64,000 nucleotides of DNA. It comes from Minisyncoccota bacterium. GTDB taxonomy: Bacteria > Patescibacteriota > Minisyncoccia > UBA6257 > GWB1-50-10. The notes under the pieces are model-generated. The model was not told the DNA's origin. It searched no databases and saw only the letters and a list, made by a program, of their open reading frames with translations. Positions 30,522-33,207 of the stretch are shown in pieces. The stretch spans positions 2,650 to 66,649 of the forward strand of contig JBAZZD010000003.1 of assembly GCA_041659005.1 (NCBI GenBank), given 5' to 3'. Numbering within the stretch: the first letter of the stretch is position 1; each line of letters begins with the position of its first letter. The position numbers and the translations under genes are program-made.

Positions 30522-31178
30522 GTGTACAATAAGATTATGCAAGAAGCAAGCTCCCCAACACAAAAGTTTGTTGAAGTAAAAGAAATAAAAGATGGAATAG
30601 TATATTTAAAGAATGGCGGCATTCGGAGAATTTTAATTGTTGGGGGTATAAACTTTGACTTAAAATCCGACGCCGAACAAAATCTTATCTTGAGCAGTTT
30701 TCAAAATTTTTTAAATACCGTGGATTATCCCGTTCAACTTTTTATACACTCGCGAAAGGTAAACGTTGATGCATATTTGGAAAAAATGCGCGAACGGAGG
30801 GGAAAGGAAGAAAATGAATTATTAAAAATCCAGATTGACGAATACATAACCTTTATTAAAACGCTTGTTGAACAAAATTCAATTATTTCAAAAACATTTT
30901 TTGTTATTGTTCCCTATGAGGGAGTAATAAATTCTTCCTCCTTTGGAATTATTTCCTCACTATTTGGATCACAAAAGTCAAAAAATGCTGAGGAGAAAGC
31001 GACACTTCAATCAAAATTAGAACAATTGGAACATCGCGTTATTGAAGTAAGGGACGGACTAGAACAAATTGGACTTCGCGTTTCAGAACTAGACGATGGA
31101 GAACTTACTGAGCTTTTTTATAACCTATATAACCCACAACTTATTGAGAAAAAGGGTCTTCAAATAACAAAAAACTAA
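30522..31178 (+). CDS. VirB4-family N-terminal domain (separate ORF)
   Basis: Start resembles VirB4/TraE N-terminal region (IKDGIVYLKNGGIRRIL.V.GINFDLKSDAEQ...FLN); size (218 aa) plus downstream 583-aa ATPase equals full-length VirB4. Confidence 0.5.
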   Translation: MYNKIMQEASSPTQKFVEVKEIKDGIVYLKNGGIRRILIVGGINFDLKSDAEQNLILSSFQNFLNTVDYPVQLFIHSRKVNVDAYLEKMRERRGKEENELLKIQIDEYITFIKTLVEQNSIISKTFFVIVPYEGVINSSSFGIISSLFGSQKSKNAEEKATLQSKLEQLEHRVIEVRDGLEQIGLRVSELDDGELTELFYNLYNPQLIEKKGLQITKN

Positions 31179-31183
31179 ATGAT

Positions 31184-31195
31184 CCCGTTAGAGAC
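31184..31195 (+). repeat. 12-bp inverted-repeat arm (cccgttagagac) flanking GIY-YIG gene
   Basis: Reverse complement gtctctaacggg at 31444-31455. Confidence 0.7.
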
Positions 31196-31198
31196 TAT

Positions 31199-31459
31199 AT
31201 GCACTACGTATATATCTTACAGAGTGAGAAGAGTAATAGGTTCTATACTGGGTATACAGCAAATTTACGGAAACGTTTAAAAGAACACAATGAAAATAAA
31301 TCAAGATATACAAATAAAAGAGGTCCATTTATACTTGTCTATTATGAGGCATGTTGCGATGAATATGATGCAAGGTCGCGCGAAATCTATCTTAAATCAG
31401 GAATGGGTAAGCGGTTTATCAAAAACCGACTTAAACGTTTCCTGTCTCTAACGGGATGA
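31199..31459 (+). CDS. GIY-YIG nuclease domain protein (YhbQ/UPF0213-like)
   Basis: YVYILQSE...FYTGYTANLRKRLKEH matches GIY-YIG core; stop overlaps downstream ATG (ATGA). Confidence 0.8.
   Translation: MHYVYILQSEKSNRFYTGYTANLRKRLKEHNENKSRYTNKRGPFILVYYEACCDEYDARSREIYLKSGMGKRFIKNRLKRFLSLTG
31444..31455 (-). repeat. 12-bp inverted-repeat arm (partner of 31184-31195)
   Basis: gtctctaacggg directly abutting ATG of VirB4 ATPase ORF. Confidence 0.7.
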
Positions 31460-33207
31460 AAATATCAATTCCTCAAGCATATACCCCTTCTACCAAAGAC
31501 GTGCCAAACGTCGTTGCACCATCTGGACTTGAAGTAAACGCAAACTATATAAAACTTGGAGATTATTTCGTAAAAACATTATTTATTTTTACATACCCTC
31601 GGTATGTCTCAAGTGGATGGTTCTCACCAATTATCAATATGGCAGAAATGATGGATATTTCAGTGTTTATTCACCCAATGGATACTGCATCTGCGTTAAA
31701 GGACCTAAAGAAAAAGGTTGCCAATATAGAGGCGGAGCTTTGGGACAAAAGAGACAAGGGACTTGTTCGTGACCCAATGCTTGAAACCGCATACGAGGAT
31801 GTTGAACAGCTTCGCGACTCGCTATTACAGGCTCGAGAAAAACTTTTCCGTGTCGGCGTCTATATTACACTCTACGCACAAACACTCGACGAACTACGAA
31901 AACTGGAAGAAAAAGTTGAGTCAACACTCGAAAGCAAGCTTGTGTATATCAAGCCAGCACTTTTTAAACAACTTGAGGGTTTTAATTCTTCGGCACTTCC
32001 CATTAACAGCGACTCTCTTGAAATCACAACTCCGCTGAATTCAAGTCCAGCATCCTCATTGTTTCCCTTTGTTTCTCCAGATCTGTCATCTGAAAAGGGG
32101 ATATTGTACGGAGTGAATATGCATAATAACAGTTTGATTATTTTTGATAGGTTTTCTCTTCAAAACGCAAATCAAGTTATTTTTGCAACCTCGGGGGCTG
32201 GGAAATCATATACAACAAAGCTTCAAGTACTTCGCTCTTTAATGCTTGGGATAAACGTTATTATTATTGACCCAGAAAATGAGTACCAAAATCTCTCAAA
32301 TGCTATTGGGGGAAGCTACTTTAAAATTTCTCTCACGTCTCCAAATCATGTAAATCCATTTGATATTCCAATAATTCCTGAAGGAGAAGAGCCATCTGAT
32401 GTCTTCAAGTCACATATCCTAAACGTTACTGGACTACTAAAATTAATGCTTGGGACAATAACACCCGAGGAAGATTCATTACTTGATAGAGTAGTAACCG
32501 AAACATATGCCTCCCGTGACATCACTGTGGAAAACTTTGGAACTATGAAGGGCATCAACGCACCGCTCCTTGAAGATCTACAAGTTATTCTTTCGAGCAC
32601 ACAAGGCGGGCAAACGCTTGCTGCACGATTAGATAAATTTACTCATGGTTCATACGCTGGATTCACAAATGCGCCAACGAATGTTGATATAAAAAATCGC
32701 CTTATCGTGTTTTCAATTCGCGACCTTGAAGAAGAGCTTCGCCCAATTGCAATGTACATTGTTTTAAATTTCGTATGGAACATTGTCCGCTCAAAGCTTC
32801 AACAGCGTTCACTTATTATTGATGAGGCATGGTTAATGATGAAATACAAGGATTCCGCATCATTTCTTTTTGGATTAGTAAAAAGAGCGCGAAAATATTA
32901 CTTAGGTATTACAACTATTACTCAAGATGTTGAAGATTTTTTGAAATCGGAATATGGTCGCCCTATTGTTTCTAATTCTTCTATGCAAATTTTAATGAAA
33001 CAATCACCTGGGTCCATTGACTCCATTGCGGCAGCATTTAATTTAACTGAGGGAGAACGAGCATTTCTTCTGGAGGCGGGTGTTGGAGAGGGATTATTTT
33101 TCGCTGGAGCAAAACACGTTGCAATTAAAGTAATTGCCTCATACATTGAGGATCAAATTGTTACCACGAATCCAGAACAGGTCCTTGAATCAAAAGGGCT
33201 TGCATAA
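31456..33207 (+). CDS. VirB4/TraC/CagE-family conjugation/secretion ATPase (C-terminal portion including ATPase domain)
   Basis: DY.KTLFIFTYPRYVSSGWF entry motif of CagE_TrbE_VirB domain, Walker A SGAGKSYTTK, Walker B IIDEAW. Confidence 0.8.
   Translation: MKISIPQAYTPSTKDVPNVVAPSGLEVNANYIKLGDYFVKTLFIFTYPRYVSSGWFSPIINMAEMMDISVFIHPMDTASALKDLKKKVANIEAELWDKRDKGLVRDPMLETAYEDVEQLRDSLLQAREKLFRVGVYITLYAQTLDELRKLEEKVESTLESKLVYIKPALFKQLEGFNSSALPINSDSLEITTPLNSSPASSLFPFVSPDLSSEKGILYGVNMHNNSLIIFDRFSLQNANQVIFATSGAGKSYTTKLQVLRSLMLGINVIIIDPENEYQNLSNAIGGSYFKISLTSPNHVNPFDIPIIPEGEEPSDVFKSHILNVTGLLKLMLGTITPEEDSLLDRVVTETYASRDITVENFGTMKGINAPLLEDLQVILSSTQGGQTLAARLDKFTHGSYAGFTNAPTNVDIKNRLIVFSIRDLEEELRPIAMYIVLNFVWNIVRSKLQQRSLIIDEAWLMMKYKDSASFLFGLVKRARKYYLGITTITQDVEDFLKSEYGRPIVSNSSMQILMKQSPGSIDSIAAAFNLTEGERAFLLEAGVGEGLFFAGAKHVAIKVIASYIEDQIVTTNPEQVLESKGLA

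Follow-up and report, generated by a model that had tools for sequence, protein, structure and literature searches.

In the type IV secretion systems of Patescibacteria, and in the monoderm-type systems of pGO1/pSK41-class plasmids with TrsD and TrsE/VirB4, a homologue of the VirB4 N-terminal domain of about 200 amino acids (aa) is encoded directly upstream of a shortened VirB4 (PMC12102498). A stand-alone TrsD beside VirB4 is the norm in Patescibacteria and pGO1-type plasmids, and the Patescibacteria TrsD, a remote homologue of the N-terminal portion of VirB4, has 2,272 homologues of which 1,664 are associated with VirB4 (PMC12102498). The stretch of DNA analysed here, which we will refer to as the window, comprises 64,000 nucleotides (nt) from a Minisyncoccota bacterium (assembly GCA_041659005.1, contig JBAZZD010000003.1, positions 2,650–66,649 of the forward strand), and it carries the same two genes. 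Its VirB4 pieces are like those of its relatives and of the TrsD systems, and it differs only in what lies between them: a 274-bp mobile element that encodes a small GIY-YIG nuclease and occupies the start codon of the ATPase gene, virB4.

Several other systems invite comparison. In phage Aeh1, nrdA is reportedly in pieces as the result of a free-standing homing endonuclease gene, mobE; there, as here, a small selfish nuclease open reading frame (ORF) lies between two ORFs of one enzyme, but in Aeh1 the insertion made the split, whereas here the split is ancestral and the element has terminal repeats, target duplications and many loci. Group I introns with GIY-YIG enzymes of the I-TevI type are similar in that a gene region is broken up by a GIY-YIG ORF whose flanks are brought together by pairing of the ends, but the insert described here has no ribozyme core or Rfam match, is only 274 nt long, lies between ORFs and is accompanied by a target duplication. 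Insertion sequences and miniature inverted-repeat transposable elements (such as the Correia elements of Neisseria), together with REPIN/RAYT systems, share terminal repeats, short duplications, ORF-less derivatives of about 110 nt, high copy number and a location next to genes. Unlike these, the present element encodes as its only protein a GIY-YIG enzyme rather than one of the DDE, HUH, serine or tyrosine types, and it borrows a stop codon, rebuilds a start codon and contains an internal covarying helix. Slx1 is a structure-specific nuclease that cuts branched and stem-loop DNA. The element's protein resembles the Slx1/UPF0213 proteins (YhbQ, BH0048) in fold and catalytic residues, and the cutting of stem-loops would fit ends that form helices, but this subfamily acts like a mobile element, and its C-terminus, KNRLKRFLSLTG, is set by the terminal repeat.

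A survey from 2006 regarded prokaryotic Slx1-like proteins as vertically inherited, non-selfish repair enzymes and traced the selfish GIY-YIG genes to the UvrC-like lineage; an Slx1-like domain in Methylococcus HsdR was described as 'recently inserted' (PMC1564403). More recently, GIY-YIG-encoding insertions in ribosomal RNA (rRNA) genes of the candidate phyla radiation (CPR) were reported in 2024 to be neither introns nor homing-like, and were left unexplained (PMC11270868). Both the CPR insertions and the HsdR insertion might belong to the element family described below.

A 274-bp insertion at the virB4 start codon

The element is arranged as follows; coordinates here and below are window positions, and L-numbers denote the 164 loci fetched for comparison, of which L001–L004 are the closest virB4 relatives.

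31183–31456, plus strand: mobile element proper, T-CCCGTTAGAGAC ... GTCTCTAACGGG-A, 274 nt, absent from the site in four relatives.
31179–31182, plus strand: left-over virB4 start codon plus A (ATGA), of which TGA at 31180–31182 is the left copy of the target duplication.
31182–31195, plus strand: left terminal inverted repeat and 5' arm of helix 1, 14 nt, 100% complementarity.
31444–31457, plus strand: right terminal inverted repeat and 3' arm of helix 1, coding for the nuclease C-terminus ...SLTG and including A and T of the virB4 start.
31269–31280, plus strand: 5' arm of helix 2, GGAAACGTTTAA, within LRKRL codons, perfect 12-nt inverted repeat.
31431–31442, plus strand: 3' arm of helix 2, TTAAACGTTTCC, within LKRFL codons, perfect 12-nt inverted repeat, 1 nt from the right terminal repeat.
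31199–31459, plus strand: ORF of an 86-aa GIY-YIG nuclease of Slx1/UPF0213 type, with the duplicated target TGA as its stop codon.

Comparison with the empty site defines the insertion to the nucleotide. The junction in L001 reads ...AAATAA|ATGAAAATATC (in a longer reading ...AAATAA|ATGAAAATATCAATTCC), and the empty target has the form ...TAAATGAAAAT..., whereas the filled junction in the window reads ...CTAAATGA(T CCCG...CGGG A)TGAAAATATC or, with the element ends written out, ...CTAAATGA(TCCCGTTAGAGAC...GTCTCTAACGGGA)TGAAAATATCAATTCC. The target duplication is TGA, at 31180–31182 and 31457–31459, and when the insert and one TGA are removed 240 nt of the window align without gaps to four relatives at 75–83% identity. 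On these aligned junctions we conclude that a 274-bp transposable element was inserted at the ATPase start codon in this genome only, among the relatives compared, and that the target A|TGA was duplicated as TGA. The element supplies no stop codon for the nuclease ORF, which ends at the right TGA copy, and the last A of the element together with the TG that follows rebuilds the host ATG, hence the ATGA overlap at 31456–31459. An earlier sequence-only reading of the window had described an insert of about 280 bp with exact 12-bp inverted repeats and a nuclease stop codon overlapping the downstream ATG. The overlap is as described and the repeats are indeed inverted and perfect, with a length of 14 nt rather than 12, and the insert measures 277 bp against the relatives' empty site.

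Two further observations concern the same region. The left-over virB4 ATG opens an ORF of 33 codons (31179–31280; MIPLETICTTYISYRVRRVIGSILGIQQIYGNV) that runs across the nuclease start in another frame. A scan of 29900–33400 for promoters and terminators found sites no more numerous than in shuffled sequence, with no sign of a promoter or terminator carried by the element.

With the results presented below, we consider it probable that VirB4 was a two-gene protein ancestrally, that a 274-bp element from a large family associated with start codons was inserted between the genes, that the element is mobilised by its nuclease and that the host gene is translated by reinitiation.

The two-gene VirB4 and the insertion between its genes

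The genes on either side of the element are the following.

30522–31178, plus strand: TrsD-like protein, a stand-alone VirB4 N-terminal domain, 218 aa from GTG.
31456–33207, plus strand: VirB4 ATPase piece, 583 aa; NCBIfam NF045971 (CD1110 VirB4-like), 374.5 bits, cutoff 325.

These two ORFs and the 86-aa ORF between them (31199–31459) are as the sequence-only reading had claimed, and its likening of the 218-aa ORF to the VirB4 N-terminal domain is borne out by the fold and agrees with profile matches that lie below the curated cutoffs. Profile matches of this N-terminal piece are confined to the N-terminal parts of VirB4 (NF045975 96–233, CD1110 2–116, TIGR00929 18–172) and to TrsD. The match to NF041427 TrsD covers 26–200 of the 201 profile positions at 33 bits, below the curated cutoff of 200, and the matches to VirB4 N-terminal regions (E = 2e-8 to 0.03) are likewise under the curated cutoffs; TrsD and VirB4 N-terminal parts are matched by all 18 of 18 diverse homologues of the piece, with a best E of 5e-12, and PF26593 (TraC-like) appears as a precomputed annotation on its homologues. 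A search of PDB sequences with the profile of the N-terminal piece gave no match, and homology to known structures surfaced through the fold search. In the AlphaFold model (pLDDT 73, pTM 0.62) the 14 best PDB matches are all R388 TrwK/VirB4 chains (probability 0.99–1.00, the next at most 0.3), with modest TM-scores of 0.33–0.44. The likely start of the gene, five codons past GTG 30522, is ATG 30537 (213 aa), the start used by the database protein of the same contig and by all orthologues. An imperfect tandem duplication of 41 nt (71% identity, 31018–31100) is present in the 3' part of the trsD-like gene and probably reflects a repeated helical coding segment.

The ATPase piece matches positions 183–733 of the 752 in the CD1110 profile, the N-terminal domain being encoded separately, and it is 100% colinear with 583-aa orthologues. 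It had been said to begin at a YP..V..GW motif, which is incorrect as the motif (YPRYVSSGW) sits at residue 47. It had also been credited with both Walker motifs: Walker A is present (ATSGAGKS, residue 244), while a pattern scan for Walker B (four hydrophobic residues followed by DE) gave no match and LIIDEAW resembles it by eye only.

Given this arrangement, one might suppose that a continuous virB4 gene was cut in two by the nuclease cassette, as the sequence-only reading proposed in the first place. The lengths of the pieces (218 + 583 aa) add up to about a full VirB4, the pieces cover complementary, non-overlapping parts of the VirB4 profiles, and the cassette lies exactly between them. 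However, in the relatives' contigs (ATPase identity 98%, 95% and 91%) a 213–214-aa gene abuts a 583-aa gene, with stop and start 0–4 nt apart, and neither a nuclease gene nor a repeat is present at the trsD–virB4 junctions of L001–L004; the unsplit virB4 that was to be sought in relatives was found in none of the closest loci, and the four empty sites lie between genes that are already two. The best 120 homologues of each piece (identity down to 74% for the ATPase piece and 59% for the N-terminal piece) are separate proteins, those of the N-terminal piece all 209–225 aa and those of the ATPase piece 581–595 aa, apart from one 552-aa entry at 93% query coverage. The element also lies after the stop codon of the N-terminal piece, outside any reading frame, and a stand-alone TrsD is the published norm (PMC12102498). 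We therefore regard fission as refuted, and by an outcome that the sequence-only reading had itself named as refuting it: relatives with the two genes and neither nuclease nor repeat. The comparison instead indicates that VirB4 in this Paceibacteria-type (Patescibacteria) lineage was ancestrally encoded by two abutting genes, a TrsD-like gene of about 213 codons and a 583-aa ATPase gene, and that neither piece was altered by the insertion. The second option of the sequence-only reading, a lineage-specific two-piece VirB4, is thus correct, and as this two-gene form is already the published norm (PMC12102498) it adds nothing new for type IV secretion. Its description of the cassette as selfish, bounded by inverted repeats and not an intron also stands, with the amendment that the cassette is a transposable element at a pre-existing gene junction.

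A widespread family of elements with common ends

At E <1e-5 the nuclease family comprises 1,884 protein clusters, and we confirmed at least 484 loci in species-representative genomes and at least 470 in metagenomes. The hosts are mostly Patescibacteria, with some Omnitrophota, Planctomycetota, Elusimicrobiota and others. Nearly every member is bounded by (T/C)CCCGTTAGAGAY ... RTCTCTAACGGG(A/G), with the ends 271–284 nt apart, and the 13/14-bp terminal repeats are conserved in 143 distinct elements at other loci (the number reached with metagenome loci added). The association of repeat and nuclease spans phyla at 63–76% protein identity.

Target duplications accompany these ends. Duplications of at least 3 nt beside the terminal bases were found in 62 of 83 copies, compared with 26.9 +/- 2.7 (maximum 39) when left and right flanks were paired at random in 2000 shuffles, and duplications of at least 4 nt in 43 of the 83 (18.2 +/- 2.5 in shuffles). 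They are not limited to TGA: among 27 elements at other targets, 16 have duplications of diverse sequence (TGTA, TGG, TAA, TTTA, TAAA, CTCTAA and others). Two copies in one metagenome-assembled genome (MAG), L008 and L047, are at different loci and 88.9% identical. Copies also occur in tandem (L027, 2476–2890; L049, 2484–2881), and in L011 (about 2455–2480) a copy lies beside the remnants of earlier ones; as each right end recreates the ATGA target, new copies can stack at one start codon. ORF-less copies with the family ends, 37–120 nt long, are frequent, and in L027 a copy with an internal deletion stands beside its full parent. Among the 164 fetched loci only the window site provides a clean and contiguous pair of empty and filled sites, the others being artefacts of nested elements. 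With its terminal repeats, target duplications, empty site, many loci and ORF-less derivatives, the insert has to be regarded, on sequence grounds, as a transposable element. L041 and L044, whose MAGs bear the labels Planctomycetes and Syntrophales, are 100% identical over 1.2 kb (2000–3200) that take in the element, which points to a binning error or a very recent transfer.

These family data bear on a different possibility, that the insert is a free-standing homing endonuclease gene confined to the trsD–virB4 junction. The protein is of the GIY-YIG type and has weak matches to models of group I intron endonucleases, and the presence/absence pattern at a single site is what such a gene would produce. 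Against this, elements of the family precede hundreds of unrelated genes and have target duplications and terminal repeats, the protein, at 86 aa, has no counterpart to the DNA-binding domain found in known homing endonucleases, and the best 120 virB4 homologues show no sign of an insert. A homing gene of this kind is, in our judgement, very improbable.

Small mobile elements of this kind are very widespread and apparently undescribed. In open-access papers and bioRxiv we found no description of a prokaryotic GIY-YIG element with terminal repeats and target duplications, although an earlier description elsewhere is possible. Among the genes of Patescibacteria that lack an explanation, small ORFs annotated as 'GIY-YIG nuclease family protein' or 'excinuclease ABC subunit C' rank with the commonest, and the present results identify them as what is encoded by a small mobile element that has defined ends, duplicates its target and gives rise to miniature derivatives. 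The presence or absence of the element could serve to mark strains in organisms with tiny genomes.

Covarying helices at the ends and within the element

An alignment of 73 elements provides further insight into the structure of the ends. In helix 1 (14 bp, formed by the terminal repeats) and helix 2 (12 bp), 97.4% of the cells are paired, compared with 29–50% in slid controls, and 142 cells are doubly compensated, compared with 39.6 +/- 4.6 in shuffles. The GTTAGA core of helix 1 is invariant in all 73 elements while neighbouring positions covary, and this core suggests recognition by a protein. In helix 2, which lies in the codons for LRKR(F/L) and LKRFL, compensatory changes occur in 6 of 12 pairs and the covariation falls at synonymous codon positions; the helix persists as a local hairpin in L028, which has no ORF. 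RNAalifold independently predicts exactly helices 1 and 2, and both also form when the window copy is folded, in the minimum-free-energy as well as the centroid structure (z = -4.66). The pairing pattern thus indicates that the element ends and the internal segment combine into about 26 bp of duplex and so keep the ends in contact.

Such pairing could act in DNA or in RNA. If the helices act mainly in RNA, they might loop the insert out of the mRNA and so bring the ribosome-binding region of the host up to the rebuilt AUG, as a split ribosome-binding site, or they might create an RNase III site; the element would then act as a structural intron at the initiation of translation. The strong covariation, including that at synonymous positions, is what an RNA role would predict, the elements are co-oriented with the host gene, and ORF-less copies occupy start codons too, most of them beyond the reach of translational coupling. 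GIY-YIG insertions in CPR rRNA genes, reported not to be introns (PMC11270868), would fit excision of a stem. Among the 143 elements G.U outnumbers A.C mismatches 28:14 in helix 2, as expected of RNA pairing, but in helix 1 the counts are 5:10 and there is no G.U bias. The invariant core of helix 1 points to recognition by a protein beyond pairing, the original AUG is free and better placed than the rebuilt one, and no Rfam family was matched. An RNA role for the helices is a possibility that we take seriously, while judging that it probably does not provide the main explanation.

A group I or other intron, or a known RNA family, was considered separately and rejected: there is no Rfam match, and the insert has 274 nt, of which 261 nt are ORF, and follows the upstream stop codon. 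Rfam finds three tRNAs in the window at the gathering threshold and nothing at E <=1 within 31000–31700.

The nuclease and the proposed mobilisation of the element

The 86-aa ORF was likened to YhbQ by the sequence-only reading, and correctly so, as it matches Pfam PF01541 at 62 bits (cutoff 22.6; E = 6.6e-17) and its structural model (pLDDT 91) has as best folds UPF0213 BH0048 and yeast Slx1, both with probability 1.00, being further from I-TevI and UvrC. Residues Y3, Y5, Y16, G18, R26 and E62 are invariant in the family and H30 is at least 90% conserved; all are present in the window copy, which we predict with confidence to be catalytically intact. The C-terminus KNRLKRFLSLTG is near-invariant across the family because the DNA of the terminal repeat encodes it. 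A phage origin of the nuclease was considered and rejected, as no relative turned up when IMG/VR viral contigs were scanned and PHROGs gave a weak homing-endonuclease match only.

We propose that the element is mobilised by its own GIY-YIG protein, which would recognise the invariant CCCGTTAGAG core. As Slx1 is structure-specific, the element's protein may cut folded or synapsed ends; it would do so at their base, in the manner of Slx1, and host repair or ligation would complete the joining. A different proposal is that the element is non-autonomous, with an unrelated transposase (for example of the DDE type) acting in trans and the GIY-YIG gene as cargo, retained for translation of the host gene or for its usefulness to the cell. 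Terminal repeats with duplications of 3–4 bp are typical of DDE transposition, and ORF-less copies are at least as common in the window as ORF-bearing ones. GIY-YIG enzymes are hydrolytic, and we know of none that catalyses strand transfer or joins DNA, so that a conventional transposase mechanism is impossible for the protein. On the other side, the nuclease ORF contains the right repeat and helix 2, an association kept from phylum to phylum, the invariant repeat core is what co-evolution with one cognate protein would be expected to give, and about 0.47 Mb of flanking sequence revealed no larger composite in which matching repeats surround another, larger gene. We regard action of a transposase in trans as unlikely.

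A bolder form of our proposal, that the element belongs to an undescribed autonomous class in which an 86-aa Slx1-type nuclease alone recognises two-helix ends and occupies and rebuilds start codons, is one to which we give slightly less than an even chance. The corollaries of the same autonomous class, that host genes depend on translation of the parasite, that this is the first selfish lineage in the Slx1 branch and that it would explain the CPR rRNA insertions, we hold with equal tentativeness. If the GIY-YIG protein does move the element, it would be a new type of enzyme in prokaryotic transposition, it would overturn the view of bacterial Slx1-like nucleases as purely housekeeping, and the element would be a natural parasite that neutralises its own insertion through a rebuilt start codon and coupled translation.

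Start codons and translation of the host gene

A long co-oriented ORF begins at offset 0, directly after ...CGGG, in 49 of 80 element calls; counted by distinct elements, the figure is 85 of 143, and most of the remaining elements have a start codon 4–18 nt away. When start-like is defined strictly, 32 of 76 elements (42%) qualify, compared with 6.4% of 4,471 random ATGA sites from the same DNA; ORF-less copies sit on start codons likewise. The common target is A|TGA(A), of which TGA(A) is duplicated, so that the left copy retains the old ATG while the last A of the element and the TG on the right form a new one. Where a copy ends in C...G, the new start codon is GTG: the flanks of L026 read ATGGC (left) and GTGGC (right), with a similar pattern in L024. 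This shows that the element contributes the first position of the new codon. In the 30 nt to the left of the insertion sites there is no Shine-Dalgarno-like or extended motif beyond ATGA(A). The occupancy of start codons could stem from the choice of target (A|TGA[A]), from purifying selection, or from both.

The right repeat has stop codons in two frames, and the third frame runs into the host ORF. Some database proteins are extended and start with MNPVRD, which is the left repeat translated from the upstream ATG; the elements thus create false N-terminal extensions (MNPVRD...), and gene callers mis-assign starts nearby. Of 45 ORF-bearing copies, 19 have the left-over ATG in the reading frame of the nuclease, against a rough expectation of about 22%, an excess that is only suggestive. 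We propose that the host gene would still be translated, by termination and reinitiation at ATGA, and that its expression would in this way be tied to translation of the nuclease ORF, making the insertion nearly harmless.

Several observations weigh against the interpretation that we prefer, namely an element inserted in this lineage, moved by its nuclease and tolerated through reinitiation. Besides the differing mismatch counts of the two helices and the lack of a known joining activity already mentioned, the nearest relatives with an empty site are only 81–84% identical in DNA, and at this distance a gain of the element in this lineage is the parsimonious reading. Recent activity in this genome would be conjecture, as the closest protein relative of the nuclease is only 76% identical and the window has a single nuclease-bearing copy. 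Finally, the left-over ATG is open to the right end in 3 of 10 ORF-less copies, which is the chance level; coupling therefore cannot explain expression of the host gene in such copies, and a 'translational relay' through them was rejected on the same count.

Other copies in the window and neighbouring genes

The terminal 12-mer occurs four times in the window with at most one mismatch, compared with 0.13 expected. The further features are as follows.

14016–14119, minus strand: ORF-less derivative of 104 nt, GTCCCGTTAGAAGC ... TTTTCTAACGGGAT, with no clear target duplication.
47063–47170, strand unassigned: ORF-less inverted-repeat pair of 108 nt, ACCCCATTAGAGAT ... ATCTCTAACGGGGT, of the C...G-ended type, with one mismatch.
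30013–30519, plus strand: gene for a PrgI/VirB3-like small membrane protein, upstream of both VirB4 pieces; Pfam PF12666 (PrgI), 32 bits, cutoff 27.

The right end of the first derivative, ...CTAACGGG-ATG, supplies the start codon of a xerC-like recombinase gene (13127–14017). The pair at 47063–47170 lies off any start codon, in the spacer downstream of ruvC (47181–47657, minus strand). A further sequence at 21159–21205 may represent a short element in decay or a solo end: ATCCCGTTAGAGAT stands right after the stop codon of a 508-aa gene (19632–21158), with a degenerate partner, ATTTCTAACAAGCCC, about 25 nt on, between convergent genes.

The PrgI/VirB3-like gene has the same position in L001, L002 and L004 and, with a VirB6/TrbL-like gene in the relatives' annotation, places the locus in a type IV cluster. 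The gene for a membrane protein of about 180 aa that follows virB4 in the relatives (L001, 5755–6297) is broken in the window (33214–33481), with residues 8–27 in one frame, residues 67–178 in another and about 50 aa deleted internally; a pseudogene or an assembly frameshift is the probable explanation.

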